This document shows, one piece after another, positions 1-8,256 of a DNA stretch of 8,256 nucleotides (its first letter is position 1; each line of letters starts with the position of its first letter). The DNA is from a virus. Its lineage: Duplodnaviria > Heunggongvirae > Uroviricota > Caudoviricetes. Made by a program: the position numbers and the translations under genes. The notes beneath the pieces were generated by a model that had not been told where the DNA came from, did no database searches, and was given only the letters and a program-made list of their open reading frames with translations. The stretch lies in the IMG/VR virus record IMGVR_UViG_2531839239_000027; one strand, 5' to 3'.

Positions 1-1242
1 ATGGCGAGAAAAACACCCCCATTAACCACAGTACAGATCAAAGCAGCCAGACCAGCAGAAAAGGAATACACCCTACAGGACGGCGGAGGGCTTTTTCTCC
101 TGATCAAACCGTCCGGATCAAAACTCTGGAGATTTTCCTACTACCGACCATCGGACAAAAAAAGAATATTGCTGAGTTTTGGATCGCTTGATGATGTTTC
201 CCTGGCTGATGCCAGAAAACGCCGTAGCGAGTACAGGGCGTTAATTCGTGCCGGAACTGACCCGCAGGACCACGAGAGGCAAAAAAGAGAGACAGAGGCC
301 CGAAGACAAGGGAACACGTTCGAAAATGTGGCAACAGCATGGTACCAGGTGAAAATCAGCCAGAATCTGGCCCCCAATACGATTAAAGACATCTGGCGAT
401 CGCTGGAAAAATATGTATTCCCGTTCATCGGCAACACGCCAATAGACACCCTGACCGCTCGCAGGTTTGTTGAGGTGCTTACCCCCATCAAGGAACGTGG
501 CAACCTGGAAACGCTCAAGCGAGTTTTACAGCGTGTAAATGAGGTAATGGATTACGCCGCCAATAGTGGGATGATTGATGCCAATCCGGCTATGAATGTG
601 CGTAAGGCGTTCCCCTCCCCTGTAAAAAAACATATGCCAACAATCCGCCCCGAACAGCTGCCGGAGCTTATGCAGGCTTTATCAGTATCGGCAACAGAAC
701 GGCAGACCAGATTACTGATTGAATGGCAGTTACTGACCGTAACCCGTCCCGTTGAAGCATCGTCGGCACGCTGGGAAGAAATCGACATGGAGGCGCAACG
801 CTGGACCATACCCGCCGGACGCATGAAGATGCGCCGCGACCACGTTATCCCGCTTTGTGACCAGGCTATGGCAGTGCTGGAGGCTATGAAACCAATCAGC
901 CACCACCGCGATTATGTTTTCCCAAGTCTGAAAGACCCACGGCAGCCGATGAACAGCCAGACAGCAAACGCAGCATTACGACGCATGGGGTTCGCTGGCG
1001 TGCTGGTGTCTCATGGATTACGCGCCATATTCAGCACAGCAGCGAACGAGGAAGGATTCGAGCCGGACGTAATCGAGGCGGCACTTGCCCACGTCGACAC
1101 CAACGAAGTCAGACGGGCATACAACCGGAGCAACTACATAGAAAAACGCGTGGTGCTTATGCGCTGGTGGGGCGAATTTGTCGAGGCTGCGGCGACGGGC
1201 GTAACCCTCGCCAGTGGTAAAAGGGGTATCCGAGCCGTTTAG
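1..1242 (+). CDS. int: P4-type tyrosine integrase / site-specific recombinase
   Basis: 413-aa ORF starting at window position 1. N-terminus (LQDGGGLFLLIKPSGSKLWRFSYY...SLADARKRR) fits the arm-binding domain pattern of P4-family integrases. C-terminus has H-x-x-R (HGLRAIF) and the LAHV...RAYNRSNY tyrosine box of tyrosine recombinases. Its promoter and any att site lie outside the window. Confidence 0.9.
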   Translation: MARKTPPLTTVQIKAARPAEKEYTLQDGGGLFLLIKPSGSKLWRFSYYRPSDKKRILLSFGSLDDVSLADARKRRSEYRALIRAGTDPQDHERQKRETEARRQGNTFENVATAWYQVKISQNLAPNTIKDIWRSLEKYVFPFIGNTPIDTLTARRFVEVLTPIKERGNLETLKRVLQRVNEVMDYAANSGMIDANPAMNVRKAFPSPVKKHMPTIRPEQLPELMQALSVSATERQTRLLIEWQLLTVTRPVEASSARWEEIDMEAQRWTIPAGRMKMRRDHVIPLCDQAMAVLEAMKPISHHRDYVFPSLKDPRQPMNSQTANAALRRMGFAGVLVSHGLRAIFSTAANEEGFEPDVIEAALAHVDTNEVRRAYNRSNYIEKRVVLMRWWGEFVEAAATGVTLASGKRGIRAV

Positions 1243-1284
1243 CTGTACAGAAAACCAGTAAAAACTACGAAAACCATTTAAAAC

Positions 1285-1314
1285 CGTCGTATAATTGCAT
1301 CACATTTAACGACG
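1285..1314 (+). promoter_or_regulatory. Candidate sigma70 promoter: perfect -10 TATAAT (1290-1295), weak -35, flanked by inverted repeat CGTCGT(1285-1290)/ACGACG(1309-1314)
   Basis: TATAAT hexamer read directly; no good TTGACA-like -35 at 17 bp. The 6-bp inverted repeat brackets the -10 and predicted start site, so it could be an operator. Not verified. Confidence 0.35.
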
Positions 1315-1340
1315 AGGCCTTGAAAAATGAAACCGTTAAG

Positions 1341-1571
1341 ATGCAAACAAATTTCAGATGCAATTGCGACGGGCTGCAACTGGCCCTGATGGTTCAGCAT
1401 GAATTTTGGTCAACCTACGATCCGGAGGACAGAACGACGGCCCCATCAAAAAAACAGGTAGTAGATTTCCTGGTATCCCGTGGAGCTTCCAGAAATCTGG
1501 CTGTAAGTATTGATAAGGTTGTACGTCCGGCATCCATGAAGACCGGAGGCAGGCCCAAAAAATGGCGGTAA
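1341..1571 (+). CDS. Hypothetical small protein with a possible HTH-like segment; may instead be a non-coding transcript
   Basis: ORF-track frame 1320..1571 (TTG at 1320, first ATG at 1341). Neither start has a convincing Shine-Dalgarno; the GAGG at 1314-1317 is best placed for an out-of-frame 19-codon ORF at 1327. The unit is bounded by the TATAAT promoter and a strong terminator. Segment GASRNLAVSIDKVVR is HTH-like by eye only. Confidence 0.3.
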   Translation: MQTNFRCNCDGLQLALMVQHEFWSTYDPEDRTTAPSKKQVVDFLVSRGASRNLAVSIDKVVRPASMKTGGRPKKWR

Positions 1572-1581
1572 CAATCCTGAA

Positions 1582-1606
1582 AGCGGCAGAAATGCCGCTT
1601 TTTTTA
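1582..1606 (+). terminator. Rho-independent terminator
   Basis: Stem AGCGGCA (1582-1588), loop GAAA, stem TGCCGCT (1593-1599), followed by a T-run to 1605. Confidence 0.7.
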
Positions 1607-1634
1607 TAAATCCCTTTCAAATCATCAATATAAA

Positions 1635-1720
1635 AAACGGTGTATACCGTTTAAAAACGGTGAGTACTGTTTTTCCCTGCATCCGATGATTTACCGTATT
1701 TCTCACCGGAATACACCGGA
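1635..1720 (+). promoter_or_regulatory. Candidate operator cluster upstream of alpA: two tandem palindromes plus direct repeats
   Basis: AAACGGT-N4-ACCGTTT at 1635-1652 (perfect 7-bp arms) and AAACGGT-N4-ACTGTTT at 1655-1672 (6/7), centres 20 bp apart. Direct repeats CACCGGA at 1704-1710 and 1714-1720. Shine-Dalgarno GAGG at 1725-1728 for the 1739 ATG. No clean -35/-10 pair identified. Confidence 0.4.
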
Positions 1721-1738
1721 TTAATGAGGTAAATCACG

Positions 1739-1945
1739 ATGGAAGCAATCAAAAAAGTCATCTTTCGCCAGGAAGTAAAAAAACTTATCCATATTAAGGC
1801 AGACAGCACGCTGCAAAGCATGATCAACGCCGGAGAATTCCCGCAGGGTTTTCGTGTCGGTTTGCGCCGTCGCGGATGGTATGAGGAAGACGTAATCGCA
1901 TGGATGAAAGAACGCGAACAAGAAGCGCGCGGAACGACCGCTTAA
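1739..1945 (+). CDS. alpA: AlpA-family phage regulatory protein (excisionase/activator-like DNA-binding protein)
   Basis: 68-aa ORF; motif ...SMINAGEFPQGFRVGLRRRGWYEEDVIAWMKERE matches the AlpA-family pattern (FP.G.r.G.r..gW.e.dv..W). GAGG 10 nt upstream of the ATG. Position just after int is typical of P4-like and PICI elements. Confidence 0.85.
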   Translation: MEAIKKVIFRQEVKKLIHIKADSTLQSMINAGEFPQGFRVGLRRRGWYEEDVIAWMKEREQEARGTTA

Positions 1946-1970
1946 CATATATAGGGCAAATGATGAACAT

Positions 1971-1998
1971 AAAAAAAGCGGCCCCGAAATGGAGCCAC
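1971..1998 (-). terminator. Rho-independent terminator for minus-strand transcription
   Basis: Read on the minus strand: GUGGCUCC-AUUUC-GGGGCCGC (8-bp stem including two G-U pairs, 5-nt loop) followed by U7 (plus-strand A-run 1971-1977). Would stop transcripts from the RHH gene before they run antisense into alpA. Confidence 0.55.
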
Positions 1999-2066
1999 CT
2001 TTCTGAACAATTAACCCGCTGCGCCGTATGTGTCAACAATCATAAGCCTGGGCATGATAACCGCGA

Positions 2067-2270
2067 TCAGGCTGGTGGGCAATTATCTTGCTTGTTGGGG
2101 CCGTATTGTGCTGCCATTTTCATCCGTTCAGAACGTGAATATTTTTTTAGAAACTCATCAAGGACAAAAGCGCATGGTGCGAATCTTTCTGATTCATGCT
2201 CGAGCGCCATATTTTCGTGCTCTCTGTTCGTTTTTTGCGATGGTGTATTGGTTGATTCTTTATTGGTCAT
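2067..2270 (-). CDS. Hypothetical small protein (67 aa; alternative internal ATG at 2210 gives 47 aa); doubtful
   Basis: Only minus-strand ORF between the RHH gene stop (2328) and the minus-strand terminator (1971-1998), so it lies inside that transcript. Weak Shine-Dalgarno, lower-GC region, no recognisable motifs. Could be non-coding. Confidence 0.25.
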   Translation of the reverse strand: MTNKESTNTPSQKTNREHENMALEHESERFAPCAFVLDEFLKKYSRSERMKMAAQYGPNKQDNCPPA

Positions 2271-2327
2271 TGTGTGTACCTGTAAAGCAATGCGCCGTAG
2301 TACCTCACACCACGGCGCTGATAGTGA

Positions 2328-2633
2328 TTATTCTGATTCTTTGGCCTTGCGGCGCTGGAGTTCTTCACGTGCGACAGTGACGAGCTGCCCGATCTCCTCG
2401 GCGGCTTTGATTCCGAGTTTTTCCACCTGCGCCAGTGCATTGAGCGAAGAAATCAGGAGGTTTTCTCCGCTTCCTTCTGCCTGGCGGCGGGCGATTTCAC
2501 CGCGCATGGCGGTTACTATGAATCCGGCGTTGCTTTCACCGTCCAGTTTTACGGATTCCATGCCTTCAATAACATCATGCGGGATCCGAGCTGTCAGTGA
2601 TTGTGATTTTGCGTTTTTTGAACCTGTAGCCAT
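2328..2633 (-). CDS. Ribbon-helix-helix (Arc/CopG/MetJ-like) DNA-binding protein with C-terminal helical extension; putative repressor
   Basis: ORF-track frame 2328..2648 begins at TTG; the ATG at 2633-2631 with GAGAGG Shine-Dalgarno is the likelier start (101 aa). N-terminus KSQSLTARIPHDVIEGMESVKLDGESNAGFIVTAMRGEIARR has the beta-strand/helix/helix layout of RHH regulators. Divergent from the Icd-like-to-rep operon across an operator-rich region. Confidence 0.6.
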   Translation of the reverse strand: MATGSKNAKSQSLTARIPHDVIEGMESVKLDGESNAGFIVTAMRGEIARRQAEGSGENLLISSLNALAQVEKLGIKAAEEIGQLVTVAREELQRRKAKESE

Positions 2634-2654
2634 CTGTAATCCTCTCAATGAAAG

Positions 2655-2749
2655 TGTAAGACAATATACACATAAAAAGTCTTACATAAAAGCATTGACA
2701 TGTAAGCCACCTATAAATAAAGTTACTTACACCTTGTTAATGCAAGGTG
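2655..2749. promoter_or_regulatory. Divergent promoter/operator region: two TGTAAG...CTTACA palindromes, a sigma70-like promoter and a leader inverted repeat
   Basis: IR1 TGTAAGAC-N16-GTCTTACA (2655-2686). -35 TTGACA (2695-2700), 17-bp spacer, -10 TAAAGT (2718-2723), pointing rightward. IR2 TGTAAG-N19-CTTACA (2701-2731) overlaps the spacer and -10. IR3 CACCTTG-N6-CAAGGTG (2730-2749) sits at the predicted start site. A TATATT hexamer on the minus strand within IR1 could be the -10 for the RHH gene. Confidence 0.55.
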
Positions 2750-2829
2750 CAGAAACGACGAAACCCCGCACTGTAGGAGCAGTAACGGGGCTTCTAACCA
2801 CCAACGATAACGAGAGTATCGAGGTAGCT

Positions 2830-3030
2830 ATGAGAAATCATACCACACACCCGCAAGGGCGGGACTCGCACAACCTGAATAAATACATTTGGCGTTTTAT
2901 CGCCCTGAGCACTGCACAACCGCGCGTGATTACCATTGAGGCCACCAGCGAACAGGAAGCACGCCTGCAATCCCCGGCTGGCTGCGTGATGGTATTCGCT
3001 GCCCGTATTCGTCAGGGGGTAGGCTTATGA
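2830..3030 (+). CDS. Small protein resembling host cell-division inhibitor Icd-like proteins of P1/P4-type prophages
   Basis: 66 codons, the C-terminal part of the spurious long ORF 1900..3030. GAGG at 2821-2824, 5 nt before the ATG. Motif YIWRFIALS...TSEQEARLQ...VMVFAARIRQG matches my recollection of the Icd-like pattern (rF.f.a....A..E.aR...lAR.fvL.FAGR); from memory, not searched. Stop overlaps the next start (ATGA at 3027-3030). Confidence 0.45.
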   Translation: MRNHTTHPQGRDSHNLNKYIWRFIALSTAQPRVITIEATSEQEARLQSPAGCVMVFAARIRQGVGL

Positions 3031-3689
3031 GCCAGGAAATCACACTACAACAGGCAGCAGAACGCGCCCACCAAATCGAAGTTATTTGCGCACTGGCAGA
3101 GGATTACCCAAGCATGATGACCGACAGAGAATCAGGGGCAATCATCAGCTTACTTAAACGCCTTAGCGGTGAGGTCTGCGTATTCCTGATCGATGAACAG
3201 GAAAGAAGAACGCTTATTTCTAACGAAAAAAATGCGGAGGGGTACATGTGCAATAAAACCACACCGGACGCAGCCGCCGCGCTCACTACGCTGATGCACG
3301 CACTTATTGATATTGAATGCACGGCAGAGCTTGCGCAGGGAGAAGAACAGAAAGACCGGACACAGTTCGCCCTGGAATGTATCCGATACATCGCAACGCG
3401 GTCGCTGAATGACGCTAAAAATATTCTTGTTGCTGATTGTGAAAATGGGGGGGTTATGCGTGATGATCGTTTTAATTCCCTGAAACAAGAATTTTCCGGC
3501 GTTCCTGATGATGCGGCTGATGCGCTTTCGTCAATGCCAGAACTTATTAGAGCGGCTTTTTTCTTACTTTCCACGAGAGAATATAAATCAACGGGACTTG
3601 ATGTACTGAATATCGCCGCCGATTATGCGGAATATGTGGCAGAGGCGCGTTACAGAAGAAAATTTCCTGAGGATGTAAGCCATGCGTGA
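3027..3689 (+). CDS. Hypothetical protein (220 aa, acidic, predicted helical); function unknown
   Basis: Start overlaps the Icd-like stop; 8-nt overlap with the next ORF (ATGCGTGA at 3682-3689). G-rich Shine-Dalgarno-like stretch upstream. No catalytic or nucleotide-binding motif recognised. Confidence 0.6.
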   Translation: MSQEITLQQAAERAHQIEVICALAEDYPSMMTDRESGAIISLLKRLSGEVCVFLIDEQERRTLISNEKNAEGYMCNKTTPDAAAALTTLMHALIDIECTAELAQGEEQKDRTQFALECIRYIATRSLNDAKNILVADCENGGVMRDDRFNSLKQEFSGVPDDAADALSSMPELIRAAFFLLSTREYKSTGLDVLNIAADYAEYVAEARYRRKFPEDVSHA

Positions 3690-3920: not shown

Positions 3921-4220
3921 ATGAAACTTAAATATTCTGGCTTAACTGCCAGTGGCAACACTCACCCTAAATTTACGCGCGGTGATATTTACCGCGACCA
4001 GTACGGCGGCACGGTAATGATTAAGGGCGTGGCGGGACGGTGCGTAACTTACCGCCGTGAAGGTTACGAATATGATTGCGTGATGCCTGTTTATCAGTTC
4101 CGGCGTGATTTTTCTCTGGTACAGACCGCGCCGCATAACGTGCCCACCAGCAACGCCAGGGCACGGGCAAACATCCAGAAGCTGAAAACCATGATTAACG
4201 GATTCAGGGGCAAGAAATGA
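3921..4220 (+). CDS. Hypothetical protein (99 aa, basic, Gly/Tyr/Arg-rich)
   Basis: GGAG at 3906-3909; stop overlaps the rep start (ATGA at 4217-4220). No recognisable motif. Confidence 0.5.
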   Translation: MKLKYSGLTASGNTHPKFTRGDIYRDQYGGTVMIKGVAGRCVTYRREGYEYDCVMPVYQFRRDFSLVQTAPHNVPTSNARARANIQKLKTMINGFRGKK

Positions 4221-5617
4221 AAAGCGCACCGAACTTAAAAAAACAGCCTTACGACAAGATGACCGAAGTCATCATTTTTGCGGGTAGTGATGCGTGGGCA
4301 CATGCGAAACAGTGGCAGGAACAGGACGGGCGACTGGCTGGCGATAATGTGCCTCCCGTTGTGCTGGCTGATGATCAACTGGATGAACTGGCAGACCTGA
4401 GAATCATCGACGAGGGGCGCTATTGTGTCCGGCTGTACAAGGCAGGCCACATCAGGCCATCAAATATTAATGCCATTGCGCACAAGCTGGCGGCGGCGGG
4501 TGTAACTGATGCGAATTATTACCCCGAAGGGATGCACAGCCAGAAGCGGGAGAACTGGCGCGAATATCTGGAACGGGAGCGGGGGAAAAAGCCAGGGGAA
4601 GAAAAACACCACCAGCGAAAAACCACGCTACCAATGAGCGTGGGATCTGCCGGATACGACACACAACTTGATTACGTGGTTAAGGGGATTATTCCGGCGG
4701 TATCGCTGTGCAGCATATACGGGGCGAGCGGTTCATATAAATCGTTCCTTGCGGGTTCGTGGGCGTGTCACGTTTCCACGGGCCGCCAGTGGGGAGGCCG
4801 CAGGGTGGCGCATGGCGCTGTTCTCTATGTGGTTGGTGAAGGCGGTATCGGCGTTCCGCGTCGTGTAAAAGCCTGGGAGGTTGTGCACGGTGAGCAGGTG
4901 AAAAATCTGTATCTGGTAAACCGTCCCATCTTTCCGGCTGCCCCGCTTGATGTTGAGGAAATGGTTATCGCTGCCCGTCAGGTGGAACGGGAAACGGGTA
5001 AACCGGTTCGAATGATTATTCTGGATACGCTGGCGCGCTGCTTTGGCGGCAATGATGAAAATGATTCCCGTGATATGGGGGCGTTTATCCGTGGGTGTGA
5101 CGAACTGAAACGGCGCACAGGGGCAACGGTGCTGGTGGTTCACCATTCCGGCAAGGATGAAACAAAGGGGGCGCGTGGTTCCAGTGCATTTCGTGCATCA
5201 CTGGACGCCGAATACCGGATACGCAGGGAGGACGCAGGCAGCGAAGCGCTGGTTATCTCATGTACCAAAATGAAGGACGCGGAGGAACTCAAAGAAGCAG
5301 CATATGACTTACGCGTGGTGGAGCTTTTTACCGACGCTGACGGGGAGTTAATCACGTCGCTGGTGGTGGTGGATAAGCCGCGCCCTCCCGTTGAACTGGA
5401 GCGCATCGAGGAGGCAGGGAACAAGACGGAGAATCACGCCGCGCTATGGCAGTGCATCAGAACACGAACAGCACACGGGGAGGCGTGCACTATCGCCCTT
5501 CTCCGCGACGATATGAAAAAGCTGGGGTATGAGATGAAGCACTTCCGGCGCTGGCTGTACAAGCTGGAAAATGATGGCGTAATCGTTATTGACGGTGATG
5601 ACGTGCGCCCGCTGTAA
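4217..5617 (+). CDS. rep: Replication protein: RepA/DnaB-like RecA-fold ATPase (AAA_25-type helicase) with an N-terminal domain of unknown function
   Basis: 466 aa. P-loop region YGASGSYKS, Walker B-like MIILDTLARCF, and LVVHHSGKDETKGARGSSAF matching the RepA-family sensor pattern (vhH.gK....RGssa). Followed immediately by an iteron array. AGGGG Shine-Dalgarno at 4204-4209. Confidence 0.8.
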   Translation: MKSAPNLKKQPYDKMTEVIIFAGSDAWAHAKQWQEQDGRLAGDNVPPVVLADDQLDELADLRIIDEGRYCVRLYKAGHIRPSNINAIAHKLAAAGVTDANYYPEGMHSQKRENWREYLERERGKKPGEEKHHQRKTTLPMSVGSAGYDTQLDYVVKGIIPAVSLCSIYGASGSYKSFLAGSWACHVSTGRQWGGRRVAHGAVLYVVGEGGIGVPRRVKAWEVVHGEQVKNLYLVNRPIFPAAPLDVEEMVIAARQVERETGKPVRMIILDTLARCFGGNDENDSRDMGAFIRGCDELKRRTGATVLVVHHSGKDETKGARGSSAFRASLDAEYRIRREDAGSEALVISCTKMKDAEELKEAAYDLRVVELFTDADGELITSLVVVDKPRPPVELERIEEAGNKTENHAALWQCIRTRTAHGEACTIALLRDDMKKLGYEMKHFRRWLYKLENDGVIVIDGDDVRPL

Positions 5618-5819
5618 AAAGTGGGGAGTAAAAGTGGGGGGAGTGGGGAATTTAACAAAATTGAAACATAATTACCCACTTTCCCACCTGTATATACCCA
5701 AAAAAGTGGGGAGTAAAAAACATATTGAAAAACATAACGTTAGAATCACAAAAAAAAGAGGTGGGGAGACGGTGGGTAATTTCAAAAAGTGGGGAGCAAA
5801 AGTGGGGAGTAGTGGGGAA
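5618..5819. repeat. Iteron array flanking an AT-rich core; putative origin of replication
   Basis: At least 9 direct copies of GTGGGGAG/GTGGGGAA/GTGGGTA at approximately 5621, 5634, 5643, 5706, 5761, 5772, 5789, 5802 and 5812. Inverted copies at 5674-5689 (ACCCACTTTCCCACC). A-rich core 5651-5756 with repeated ATTGAAA(AA)CATAA at about 5659 and 5724. Confidence 0.7.
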
Positions 5820-6064
5820 TGAACAGAAAAACCAGAGATAAGACAGCGCCAAAATATAAAGCGTTAGACATGACAGAGCTTTCCTTAAAGGTGGCAATCA
5901 GAACGATAGACCGCCACGCGGGGGAAGGATACGCGAAGGAGCATCCCGAACTGATAAGCGCATTCATGACCACAGCGGCGGCAAACTTTGCCACGCTGAC
6001 AGAACGGGAGATTGCCGAAGCGGAACAGGTAACAACCATCAACGTTAAAAGCGCTGGAGAATAA
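5819..6064 (+). CDS. Hypothetical protein (81 aa; alternative start at ATG 5870 gives 64 aa)
   Basis: ORF begins inside the last iteron and ends 19 nt before a strong terminator. GGGGAG 9 nt upstream of the 5819 ATG. No recognised motif. Confidence 0.4.
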   Translation: MNRKTRDKTAPKYKALDMTELSLKVAIRTIDRHAGEGYAKEHPELISAFMTTAAANFATLTEREIAEAEQVTTINVKSAGE

Positions 6065-6082
6065 CCGAAGAAGTGAGCACAT

Positions 6083-6107
6083 AGCCGGAGCAATCCGGCT
6101 TTTTTTC
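6083..6107 (+). terminator. Rho-independent terminator
   Basis: Stem AGCCGGA (6083-6089), loop GCAA, stem TCCGGCT (6094-6100), then T-run 6100-6106. Confidence 0.7.
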
Positions 6108-6194
6108 GATCTCATATATCTTCAAAGATGGTTAATTAATGATAATCTATCGAAAATACTGGTTATGCAATGATAAGTATCAGGAGAAAACAAA

Positions 6195-6389
6195 GTGGAA
6201 GAGATAAAGCAAAGCGCTACCGTGATGATTGATCATGAAATCCTTAACGAGCTTAAAAAGTTGCAGTTCGATATTGTGCGCCGGATGAATGAATCAGGTA
6301 TCTACGGCAGGGCGGCAACACCAACAATAGGGCATCTTGCGCGCGTACTGTTACGCGAACGCCTGGGCATTGCAACAAGTGAGGCGTAA
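6195..6389 (+). CDS. Hypothetical small protein (64 aa, GTG start), possibly a small DNA-binding protein
   Basis: Strong Shine-Dalgarno AGGAG (6182-6186) 8 nt before the GTG. First gene after the terminator and an AT-rich promoter-like region (6110-6180; GATAAT at 6141-6146). N-terminal beta-strand then helices (ATVMIDHEILNELKKL...) suggests an RHH-like fold; speculative. Confidence 0.45.
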   Translation: MEEIKQSATVMIDHEILNELKKLQFDIVRRMNESGIYGRAATPTIGHLARVLLRERLGIATSEA

Positions 6390-6392
6390 ACA

Positions 6393-6554
6393 ATGGCTAT
6401 CACAGAACGCGAGGCAAGCATCATTAAAGCCATTGGCGAGGAAACAAGAGACACCATAGCGCCATTGATGGAAAAGATCGCAGAGCTTGAGACACGAATA
6501 AACAAGCTGAGTGATGAAGTTGAAGGCCTGATCTCGTTACTCGGTGAGCAATGA
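6393..6554 (+). CDS. Hypothetical small helical protein (53 aa); not in the supplied ORF track
   Basis: Hand translation: MAITEREASIIKAIGEETRDTIAPLMEKIAELETRINKLSDEVEGLISLLGEQ. GAGG at 6381-6384, 8 nt before the ATG, which is 3 nt after the upstream stop. Heptad-like pattern. Confidence 0.4.
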   Translation: MAITEREASIIKAIGEETRDTIAPLMEKIAELETRINKLSDEVEGLISLLGEQ

Positions 6555-6640
6555 CAGGGGGGGAGTGTTCCGGCCGGAAAGTCGATCGCCCTGGACACCG
6601 CCCCCAGTCTCATTCATAGAAAATTTTGCTTTTCAAAAAA

Positions 6641-6660
6641 GTTACACGAAAAGTTACACC
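6641..6660 (+). repeat. Two direct GTTACAC(C) repeats 12 bp apart, immediately upstream of terS
   Basis: GTTACAC at 6641-6647 and GTTACACC at 6653-6660, each preceded by an A-run. Same motif and 12-bp spacing as the array inside terS. Confidence 0.5.
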
Positions 6661-6681
6661 CCCTCAAAACGAGGTTTTTGC

Positions 6682-7170
6682 ATGGCATTAACGACCAAAA
6701 AAAAGCGGTTTGCTGATGCGTTATCAAAGGGCACAAATCCAACGGAAGCCGCGATACATGCGGGATACAGCGAAAAGACTGCAAGGGTTAAAGGCTGGCA
6801 GCTATCCAATGATCCGGAGGTGAAAAAGTATCTTAAGGCTGTAACTTCTGATGTAACTTTTCAGGTTACAAAACCGAAAAAAGTTACAAAGAAAGTTACC
6901 GAAAAAGTTACACCGGAACGGGCATCAATTAACACCATTGAGATGATGGATAACGGCCTACCCGACCCCATCAAAGCAATGGGCAGGATACTGATTGACA
7001 ACATGGACACAGATCCAAAACTGGCTTTAGATGCCGCGTTTAAGCTGGCCCAGTTCACCCACCGCAAGATCGGCAGCATTGGGAAAAAAGAGGTTAAAAA
7101 ACTCAATGCCGCTAATGTCTCCTCAAATCGGTTCCCCATCCCTAAGCCACCAACTGGCTTAAAACACTGA
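6682..7170 (+). CDS. terS: Phage terminase small subunit (Terminase_2/P27-like N-terminal HTH)
   Basis: N-terminus MALTTKKKRFADALSKGTNPTEAAIHAGYSEKTARVKGWQLSNDPEVKKYL matches the TerS pattern (KQ.lF...Y...GNaT.AAi.AGYS.KTA...G..Ll.n..V..yi). ORF-track frame opens at 6544, but the ATG at 6682 with GAGG at 6671-6674 is the likely start. 162 aa from that start. Confidence 0.75.
   Translation: MALTTKKKRFADALSKGTNPTEAAIHAGYSEKTARVKGWQLSNDPEVKKYLKAVTSDVTFQVTKPKKVTKKVTEKVTPERASINTIEMMDNGLPDPIKAMGRILIDNMDTDPKLALDAAFKLAQFTHRKIGSIGKKEVKKLNAANVSSNRFPIPKPPTGLKH
6841..6914 (+). repeat. 12-bp-periodic array of GTTAC/GTAAC pentamers inside terS
   Basis: GTAAC at 6841 and 6853; GTTACA at 6865; GTTACA at 6883; GTTACC at 6895; GTTACACC at 6907. 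Spacings of 12 bp except one 18-bp gap. Encodes the low-complexity stretch VTSDVTFQVTKPKKVTKKVTEKVT. Confidence 0.55.
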
Positions 7171-7181
7171 GGTAGCGAACT

Positions 7182-7343
7182 ATGAGCGAATACATCACAG
7201 ACCCTATTGATGTACTCACGGAAATCATGAACGACAAGCAGCAGCCAACCGAAATACGGTTACAGGCTGCCGCTGTTCTGATGCCATATTTTCACGAAAC
7301 CCTAACCCCATGTTACCAGGAGGAAGAAGATAATGATTTCTAA
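7182..7343 (+). CDS. Hypothetical small protein (53 aa); not in the supplied ORF track
   Basis: Hand translation: MSEYITDPIDVLTEIMNDKQQPTEIRLQAAAVLMPYFHETLTPCYQEEEDNDF. GAGG at 7169-7172; begins 11 nt after the terS stop and overlaps the next start by 11 nt. Confidence 0.4.
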   Translation: MSEYITDPIDVLTEIMNDKQQPTEIRLQAAAVLMPYFHETLTPCYQEEEDNDF

Positions 7344-8256
7344 AAACATGAAAGGCGTGTCGGCAGTTCGCGCCGCCAGCGTGCTTACATCGTGTAAATT
7401 CAGCCATGCAGACGCAATTGAAATGACGAAAAAAAATGATCCGGCAGTATCGAAATTTCTTGAAAAATCCATTGTTGCCGGAATGACTACGGATAATATG
7501 CCGTCGCTGGTGGCAGAGCCGATAGTAAGAGAGCTTGGCGAGTATATTTTTTCGCAGTCTGTACCAGGCAAGCTAATCAGCAGCGCGCTGAATCTTCCGT
7601 TTGGCGCAAAATTGCAGTCAATATCAGGCAAGGGTAGTAAATGGCTTAAAGAAGCCGAAGAAATCCCTGTCAAAGAGGGAGAAGTAAACGAAAGTGCGCT
7701 AAAACTGTGCAAACTTGGCGCTATTGTGATGCTGAATAACGAGCTAATCAAATTTAGCACCCCTGGTACCAATTCAGCGATCAGAGACTTGATCACATCG
7801 GAATCGGTGAAAGAAATAGATAAAAAATTTCTTTCCAGTGACCAGGAGGTGGCGGGCGTATCCCCTGAGGGCGTGCTTAATGGTGCTGATGAGGCCGAAA
7901 ACTTCATAGAGCTTTTCAAAAAGCACATAGCGAACGGTAACACGCTTGCCACGTCGTCGCTAATCTTGCCCGTAGAAAACGCCTTACAGCTTACTGATGC
8001 TGAGTTCTGGCAGATAGAGCTTTTGAGAATACCGGTAATTGTGAGCGAACAGGCGGATCGCATGATGCTGATAGACGCTCAAAAGCTGATTATTAACGTT
8101 GAAGCCACGGTTATAACCCCAACTGATGAGGCGGTAATAAAAACCGAATCAGGGACGGTTAGCCTTTTCCAGAATGACGCTACAGCGTTCAGGGCAATCA
8201 CCTATTGCGGATGGCAAAAACTCGATAAGGCCGTCACCGTTCTGGCGAAAAGCTGA
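7333..8256 (+). CDS. HK97-fold phage major capsid protein-like (no N-terminal scaffold/delta domain)
   Basis: 307 aa, complete (stop at 8254-8256). GGAGG at 7318-7322. Segments SPEGVLNGADEAENF and ATSSLILPVENALQLTDAEF line up by eye with the HK97 gp5 segments EGQLLNGDGTGDNLEGL and ASGIVLNPRDWHNIALLKD. Alignment is from memory and unverified. Confidence 0.6.
   Translation: MISKNMKGVSAVRAASVLTSCKFSHADAIEMTKKNDPAVSKFLEKSIVAGMTTDNMPSLVAEPIVRELGEYIFSQSVPGKLISSALNLPFGAKLQSISGKGSKWLKEAEEIPVKEGEVNESALKLCKLGAIVMLNNELIKFSTPGTNSAIRDLITSESVKEIDKKFLSSDQEVAGVSPEGVLNGADEAENFIELFKKHIANGNTLATSSLILPVENALQLTDAEFWQIELLRIPVIVSEQADRMMLIDAQKLIINVEATVITPTDEAVIKTESGTVSLFQNDATAFRAITYCGWQKLDKAVTVLAKS

Follow-up and report, generated by a model that had tools for sequence, protein, structure and literature searches.

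The window analysed here is the whole 8,256-nucleotide (nt) stretch of IMG/VR record IMGVR_UViG_2531839239_000027 (Caudoviricetes), and it closes with three genes on one strand: terS, coding for a small terminase subunit; a 53-amino-acid (aa) open reading frame (ORF); and a gene for a 307-aa capsid-protein homologue, whose ORF stops on the final base. Our comparisons suggest that the window probably represents the whole coding content of an 8.8-kb classical phage-inducible chromosomal island (PICI) at the tRNA-Pro gene of Shiga toxin (Stx)-producing Escherichia coli (STEC), with the last three genes forming a hijacking cassette directed against HNH-cos lambdoid prophages. The initial annotation of this DNA had given the three genes in this order and at these coordinates, with no large terminase (terL), portal, or protease gene between them, and both the ORFs and the RefSeq annotation bear this out. 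The features of this late region are listed below, with the ratio of non-synonymous to synonymous polymorphism (pN/pS) computed between E. coli island variants.

6557..6623, no strand assigned: cos-like non-coding element with core CGATCGCCCTGGACACCGCCCCC, 79-80% identical to the HNH-terS intergenic region of Stx1, Stx2, and PPompW phages
6639..6911, no strand assigned: seven AAGTTAC heptamers with 12-nt phasing, two upstream of terS, then two inverted and three direct within terS
6682..7170, + strand: terS, small terminase subunit TerS of 162 aa (Terminase_2, 43.9 bits; phrog_641 over its full length, E 6e-44; pN/pS 0.20-0.25)
7182..7343, + strand: 53-aa mini-TerS, a free-standing paralogue of the central part of TerS (phrog_641 positions 89-126, E 8e-7; pN/pS 0.21)
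7333..8256, + strand: 307-aa HK97-fold capsid-protein homologue, the last island gene (profile, sequence, and fold evidence; pN/pS 0.15-0.17)

STEC genomes, among them that of E. coli O26:H11 str. 11368, match window positions 6000-8256 at 100% identity, and the RefSeq annotation of strain 11368 (NC_013361.1) also gives the three genes as terS, 53-aa ORF, and capsid gene. In this chromosome, the integrase gene at the left end of the island adjoins tRNA-Pro and yejM, while on the right the capsid homologue is followed by the pseudogene yejO, narP, and the ccm operon. The right attachment site (attR) repeats 10 bp of the tRNA-Pro 3' end (CTCTCGTGCC) and is found 354 bp past the capsid stop; the att-to-att interval is ~8.8 kb, and a 26-nt arm-type repeat is found near either island end. 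We reconstructed the empty site (374 nt) by joining the tRNA at the core to the sequence past the right repeat, and this query had an unbroken 100% match in strain 8D of E. coli O111:H11; 4825 of the 5426 genomes cover at least 80% of it. Both the empty-site match and the att boundary indicate that no head module continues downstream and that the window holds all of the island genes. The initial annotation had left two layouts open, one being a rearranged head module running on beyond the window and the other an element that supplies only TerS and capsid and takes the rest from a helper phage. The boundary evidence removes the first and leaves the second. It had also proposed inspecting the downstream sequence, where there is no terL, portal, or protease gene; the island ends at attR, and yejO follows.

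Three observations concern the island ends themselves. GACC is missing from the copy of the tRNA-Pro 3' end at the right of the island (positions 2834-2848 and 11611-11620 of our NC_013361.1 extract, L001), and most empty sites are 4 nt longer than our reconstruction. Strain 8D (hit H207) fits this damaged version of the empty site exactly, which suggests that its tRNA-Pro gene lost its proper 3' end on island loss. The annotation of E. coli ZH49 has a further hypothetical gene (93 aa) beyond the capsid homologue, within the right end of the island (L013 10174-10455), so that some variants can accommodate cargo at this end.

The 307-aa protein is a capsid-protein homologue, and the earlier suggestion that it is HK97-like was upheld by every line of comparison we used. 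The Pfam model Phage_capsid matched residues 100-300 with 28.8 bits (cut-off 24.2), PHROG profiles matched it to two major head protein families (E 1e-10), and tblastn aligned it to annotated phage major capsid proteins over 94-97% of its length; it aligns weakly with solved capsid proteins. The NCBIfam HK97 capsid model scored 26.8 bits, just below its cut-off of 27.5, and was left aside, the call being based on Pfam, PHROGs, and a fold search. For the latter, an AlphaFold model from a 7-sequence alignment (predicted local distance difference test, pLDDT, 53.9) was discarded, and one from a 31-sequence alignment (pLDDT 79.4, predicted template modelling score 0.80) was used. All of the top 50 PDB matches to this model were HK97-fold capsid or encapsulin chains (probability 1.00), and the fold matches included chains of 7RWZ, the procapsid of the Staphylococcus aureus satellite SaPIbov5 with its capsid homologue Ccm. 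In the model, we take a low-confidence hairpin at residues ~94-117 to be the E-loop and the long helix at 144-166 to be the spine helix; the strands that come after would make up the A and P domains.

The capsid homologue aligns to residues 291-633 of the 645-aa protease-capsid fusion of helper-type phages (23% identity, E 3e-19), a protein that is annotated as “prohead protease” and carries Peptidase_S78 at residues 48-153 and Phage_capsid at 386-635 in Pfam. The stretch between the two parts of the fusion, read by eye, looks like a coiled-coil-like linker. Because the alignment begins at fusion residue 291, the 307-aa protein has neither the Peptidase_S78 domain nor the residues up to 290, and the initial view that it leaves no room for an N-terminal scaffold or delta domain was essentially right. 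About 90 residues precede the E-loop in the model; by our estimate, some 50 of these would be extra helical N-terminal residues beyond what a bare HK97 core needs, with no coiled-coil scaffold part. A Shine-Dalgarno sequence (AGGAGG) lies 5' of the start of the gene. Neither between nor after the terS, 53-aa, and capsid genes did the island ORFs or the RefSeq annotation show any terL, portal, protease, or head-tail connector gene.

Relatives of the capsid homologue were few in word-indexed protein searches (7, 17, and 26 proteins). An exhaustive search gave 563 hits, with nine clusters at E < 1e-30, all of them 315-331 aa. The distant hits included capsid proteins of ~450 aa and many proteins of 600-830 aa in which the match starts from residue ~280-410, a pattern consistent with N-terminal fusions.

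The region at the other end of the cassette points to a particular group of phages. Island TerS, in which Pfam places a helix-turn-helix (HTH) domain at residues 3-57, aligns with the TerS of Stx/PPompW phages over 96% of its length, at 47% identity. The cos-like element upstream of the gene (~65-80 nt shared) was found in 78 phage records, each time 5' of terS, in DNA without annotation. The record of phage Lys8385Vzw opens right after the same G+C-rich stretch as that in the island's element, which would fit a cos end at this stretch, although this is only suggestive because the record is flagged circular. Beside the shared core, the island and phage sequences diverge: at the place equivalent to the AAGTTAC array of the island, helper-type phages have TGTTAAC repeats. 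AAGTTAC occurs nine times in the window against 0.66 expected, with seven of the nine in the 6639-6911 cluster, and we presume that the array represents island-specific TerS binding sites of a cosB/pac-like kind. The five heptamers in the 5' half of terS encode the KKVTKKVTEKVT repeat of the TerS linker, so that the DNA coding for this linker doubles as presumed binding array.

Because three independent features (TerS, the capsid homologue, and the upstream non-coding element) all point in the same direction, the likely helpers would be HNH-cos lambdoid prophages of STEC, namely Stx1a-, Stx2a-, and Stx2c-converting prophages and those of PPompW type. In such phages the module runs HNH, cos, TerS, TerL, protease-capsid fusion, portal. 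This helper-type head module is present in 1255 of the 5426 E. coli genomes, at a median of 2 copies, and at least 10 listed genomes with the island also carry a helper-type module that is 99.4-99.7% identical to the query.

Of 5426 complete E. coli genomes, 220 contain full-length copies of both the 53-aa ORF and the capsid gene at 96% identity or more, and the carriers among the matches listed are mostly O26, O103, O111, O55:H7, and O157:H7. The pN/pS values of 0.15-0.25 indicate that all three genes are under purifying selection and are not debris. Further afield, relatives at 39-52% identity are integrase/AlpA/replicase islands that each end in the capsid homologue, and this gene closes the island in each of 8 related loci. 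The succession of TerS (124-181 aa as called), a 50-54-aa ORF, and the capsid homologue recurs in Serratia aquatilis (L006), Arsenophonus nasoniae (L010), and two islands (L002 and L003) of ENA record ERZ15232907 NODE_13. In the Serratia marcescens relative (L008, L009) there is no called TerS or ~53-aa ORF, and one further locus (L004) covers only the 3' end of its island.

These data bear on whether the region could instead be a decayed prophage remnant, a functionless terS and truncated capsid gene left behind after deletion of terL, portal, and protease. The order of TerS and capsid domain is indeed colinear with the helper-type succession of TerS, TerL, and protease-capsid fusion, minus TerL and the protease part, and other parts of the island bear annotated pseudogenes (Icd-like and ash). 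However, the reading frames are intact in 220 genomes, the pN/pS values speak against decay, and the arrangement recurs in E. coli, Serratia, Arsenophonus, and L002/L003 at 44-47% protein identity. Moreover, the set of integrase, putative regulator, replicase, and presumed origin is complete and the att boundaries are precise, while an identity of just 23% to the phage capsid means that the 307-aa protein is not a recent deletion product. We therefore regard the remnant explanation as very improbable.

Some of the related loci differ in their surroundings. In E. coli O157:H7 F8092B (L012 1617-10086), the terS/mini-TerS/capsid cassette, at 92-98% nucleotide identity, sits on another backbone, with a different integrase, a D5-type primase, and a cspD-clpS integration site; the same late cassette on a different backbone indicates modular exchange of the hijacking cassette. 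In the ENA record, two islands of this family (L002 1-14671 and L003 1-12536) lie in the packaging/head module of a single helper-type prophage, a doubly helper-embedded arrangement that adds to the case for this helper group. The first sits between a 91-aa ORF and a 453-aa ORF matching only the TerL nuclease domain, which may be read as the halves of a split terL. The other sits between a 224-aa Peptidase_S78 ORF and a 431-aa Phage_capsid ORF, which may likewise be read as a split protease-capsid fusion gene, together approximating the 645-aa fusion. The Arsenophonus nasoniae island (CP123498; L010 1999-10948) has a D5-type primase, TerS, a 50-aa mini-TerS, and the capsid homologue, and is inserted in a prophage with head-completion genes on one side and tail assembly chaperone and tape-measure genes on the other. 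In this respect, L002, L003, and L010 resemble the helper-embedded PICIs (PMC10111431), being located inside prophage late genes (terL, protease-capsid fusion, and head-tail region). The window island, by contrast, lies at the chromosomal tRNA-Pro and not in a prophage.

The 53-aa ORF overlaps the capsid-homologue gene by 11 nt, has a Shine-Dalgarno sequence (GAGG) 5' of its start, and has a counterpart of 50-54 aa at the same position in four relatives. It had initially been proposed as a detached scaffold or size-determination factor, a proposal that does not survive comparison, as the family aligns to the central segment of TerS. An hhalign comparison of a four-orthologue mini-TerS alignment with the TerS family gave a probability of 97.4% (E 1.6e-11) over island TerS residues 79-133, in line with the phrog_641 hit, and 20 of the 21 weak tblastn hits of the ORF fell within annotated phage terS genes. 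The top PDB match of the mini-TerS profile was a small terminase, at a weak E of 0.2. BLASTP of the ORF against the island's own TerS returned no match, so this relationship is visible only by profile comparison and the PHROG hit. The profile search that had been suggested for both proteins thus placed the 307-aa protein in capsid families and the 53-aa protein in the TerS family phrog_641.

Mini-TerS and TerS have in common the motif DP..(V/F)(L/M)..IM.......R..AA..L, but mini-TerS consists of the central segment only, with neither the HTH domain nor the basic C-terminal tail seen in the TerS alignment. Judged by these profiles, it is a paralogue of part of TerS and not a terminase subunit. 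Its orthologues are closer to the prophage-type TerS core (z 10-18) than to the TerS of their own island (z 3-8). For the E. coli protein, the scores are z 11.8 to the L002 prophage TerS, z 2.9 to its own island TerS, and z 1.2 to Stx-phage TerS. We considered mini-TerS as a close mimic of the E. coli helper TerS and found this unsupported, given the z of 1.2 for Stx-phage TerS against 11.8 for that of the L002 prophage.

In small-terminase structures, the TerS central segment forms the oligomerisation helices, and on this basis we propose, as a hypothesis only, that mini-TerS may act on terminase assembly with an effect like that of Ppi, which, unlike mini-TerS, is not described as a TerS homologue. 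A more specific and quite tentative version is that mini-TerS would be a new satellite packaging-interference factor that inserts into or caps the helper TerS ring and blocks helper packaging, while island TerS uses the helper TerL and HNH nuclease. The three-gene cassette that it forms with TerS and the scaffold-less capsid homologue would then parasitise the Stx-converting and related prophages of enterohaemorrhagic E. coli and modulate Stx-phage yield. The literature we searched, in which subscription journals were thinly covered, held neither a study of a PICI with an Stx-type helper nor a description of TerS-fragment proteins in satellites, which is weak evidence in both cases. Mini-TerS is the sole fresh lead of this analysis.

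The genes ahead of the cassette determine what kind of element carries it:

1..1242, + strand: tyrosine integrase, the first island gene (Pfam Arm-DNA-bind_3, Phage_int_M, and Phage_integrase)
1739..1945, + strand: AlpA-like HTH regulator/excisionase (Pfam Phage_AlpA, E 0.003, 17.8 bits, cut-off 21; phrog_66 excisionase/regulator, E 1.4e-7)
3921-4220: DUF4222 gene, 5' of the replicase gene (Pfam)
4217..5617, + strand: RepA-type replicative helicase, AAA_25 (Pfam AAA_25, 148 bits; phrog_2850 over its full length; RefSeq “helicase RepA family protein”)
5617..5809, no strand assigned: iteron array, AAAAGTGGGGAG five times, directly 3' of the replicase gene (5 matches against 0.04 expected; direct-repeat families D2 and D3)
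5819..6554, + strand: three small conserved ORFs (81, 64, and 53 aa) opening the late module (phrog_1231 for the 81-aa ORF; RefSeq-annotated)

The AlpA-like assignment is weak but consistent, and RefSeq labels the product an HTH regulator. We presume that the iteron array is the replication origin, because its position matches that of the origin in Gram-negative PICIs (PMC6092414). Relatives carry ORFs of like size in place of the three small ORFs, and all of the island genes annotated by RefSeq in O26:H11 11368 share one strand.

The initial annotation had considered the late-gene layout unusual when set against capsid-forming satellites. The fitting comparison, however, is with classical proteobacterial PICIs, in which such a layout is normal (PMC10085698, PMC10111431, PMC6092414). 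Their core comprises an integrase, a regulator, a primase-replicase, a capsid-morphogenesis homologue, and terS, with no other structural genes, and PICIs have a median length of 9.5 kb (PMC10085698). Of 29 reference Gram-negative PICIs, 21 have a capsid gene (PMC10111431), and PmCI172 of Pasteurella multocida, with terS and a major capsid protein homologue, makes small capsids (PMC6092414). Like PmCI172 and the SatelliteFinder PICI model, the island starts with its integrase, beside an att site, followed by a putative AlpA-type regulator and a replicase with a candidate origin downstream. It is likewise unidirectional, has no structural genes beyond terS and one major-capsid homologue, has no lysis genes, and at ~8.8 kb falls within the 8-15 kb of the class. 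It differs from the usual classical PICIs in having terS before the capsid homologue, an order given for one less common PICI variant only (PMC10085698). It further differs from the classical PICIs named here in that its capsid homologue is of the HK97/PF05065 type and matched to HNH-cos Stx-type phages, in the TerS-core mini-protein between its two genes, and in being known from sequence alone. The element class is thus already described and the layout itself largely ordinary; what is worth keeping is the link to Stx-type HNH-cos phages, the presumed cos core with its AAGTTAC array, and the conserved mini-TerS.

Capsid-forming PICIs such as EcCIEDL933 share a related integrase/regulator/replicase front end, terS, and a capsid gene with the island. 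Yet they are defined by added terL and head-tail adaptor/connector genes and have portal and protease genes too (PMC10085698), and the island has none of terL, portal, prohead protease, or head-tail adaptor/connector. We therefore find it hardly credible that the 307-aa protein alone builds a shell of the satellite's own. Its HK97 fold is complete and stand-alone phage capsid proteins of ~330 aa align over 94% of it, but the defining genes of capsid-forming PICIs are absent and the island has no scaffold of its own.

The left part of the island shows several further peculiarities. Window positions 1-3500 differ from NC_013361.1 (L001), where the coordinate offset goes from 3066 to 3004 to 3001, and RefSeq marks truncated Icd-like and ash-family pseudogenes in this left region of the chromosome. 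RefSeq annotates no gene there that corresponds to a long ORF of 376 aa on the + strand at 1900-3030. The 220-aa protein encoded at 3027-3689 matches phrog_1478 with its N-terminus and phrog_2512/phrog_24341 with its C-terminus, like two phage proteins fused, and RefSeq divides this region of NC_013361.1 into several smaller genes. The annotated Icd-like and ash genes had suggested a P4-like satellite, which we rejected: the replicase is a RepA-type AAA_25 helicase and not a P4 alpha-type primase-helicase. The proteins scanned included no Psu- or Sid-like product, with no dedicated search made for Psu, Sid, or Delta.

For a classical PICI with this gene content, we propose the following course of events. 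On helper induction, the island would excise and replicate from its iteron origin. Island TerS would bind the AAGTTAC array and recruit the helper TerL and HNH nuclease to the cos core shared with the helper, and the 53-aa TerS-core paralogue would act on terminase assembly, most plausibly by binding helper TerS. Having neither a protease nor a scaffold part, the 307-aa homologue would enter shells only by co-assembly with the full-length capsid protein of the helper, and would then change the size or geometry of the shell to the satellite's benefit.

The closest precedent for this last step is Ccm of SaPIbov5, which co-assembles with the helper capsid protein despite 19% identity between the two, occupies the pentamers, and forces small isometric shells (PMC5052747; PMC8569155). 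Both are satellite HK97-fold homologues with low identity to the helper capsid (19% for Ccm, 23% here), and SaPIbov5 is packaged through a helper-type cos and an HNH-dependent terminase, as the island would be. SaPIbov5 is not known to have a terS of its own. Unlike Ccm, with its 87-residue cleavable delta domain, the 307-aa protein has no such domain, and no specific sequence relationship between the two was detectable. Still, the capsid homologue most likely acts as Ccm does, co-assembling with the helper capsid protein.

A second comparison is with EcCICFT073. This E. coli PICI also has a capsid homologue in its late region and a helper-shared cos cleavage core beside recognition sequences of its own. 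It differs from the island, which has its own TerS, in having no terS and retargeting helper TerS through Rpp, in using lambda and phi80 as helpers, and in that its capsid homologue belongs to another capsid family, related to lambda gpE (PMC10111431). In EcCICFT073, the only E. coli PICI so tested, deletion of the capsid homologue (c1499) changed neither transfer nor interference (PMC6092414).

This result is one of several that weigh against our interpretation. The delta domain that is cleaved from Ccm (residues 1-87) is missing here, so that the mode of shell entry may differ. Five or six copies of an 8.8-kb island would fill the full-size head of a helper whose candidate record is ~49 kb long, so small capsids would not be required. 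The E. coli mini-TerS is no closer to Stx-phage TerS than to its own island TerS, which weakens a simple “mimic of helper TerS” reading. Co-residence of island and helper prophage rests on the matches listed only and carries no statistical test, and the AlpA match of 17.8 bits lies under Pfam's 21-bit cut-off.

The c1499 result also underlies another explanation, in which the capsid homologue does not redirect capsid size but disrupts the assembly of helper capsids as a poison subunit or decoy, or is inessential for transfer, as for c1499. The lack of a knockout phenotype in EcCICFT073 (PMC6092414) and the room in a full-size head both favour it, and with no scaffold or protease part in the 307-aa protein, mixed shells could be defective. 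Against it, the gene is under purifying selection (pN/pS about 0.16) and stays the last island gene across genera and two backbones, and this combination of selection and conserved place argues for a function tied to the satellite life cycle. Selection and position data cannot tell size redirection from poisoning, however, and we regard this explanation as possible but rather unlikely.

Taken as a whole, the sequence evidence links a PICI family to the Shiga toxin prophages of O26, O103, O111, and O157 strains, which are of the HNH-cos lambdoid kind. Because the 307-aa protein has no scaffold part and so depends on the helper capsid protein, it offers a clean test case for the role of capsid homologues in Gram-negative PICIs, while mini-TerS is a candidate for a new mechanism of terminase interference. 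A satellite that interferes with or rides on Stx phages could affect both the yield and the spread of these phages.

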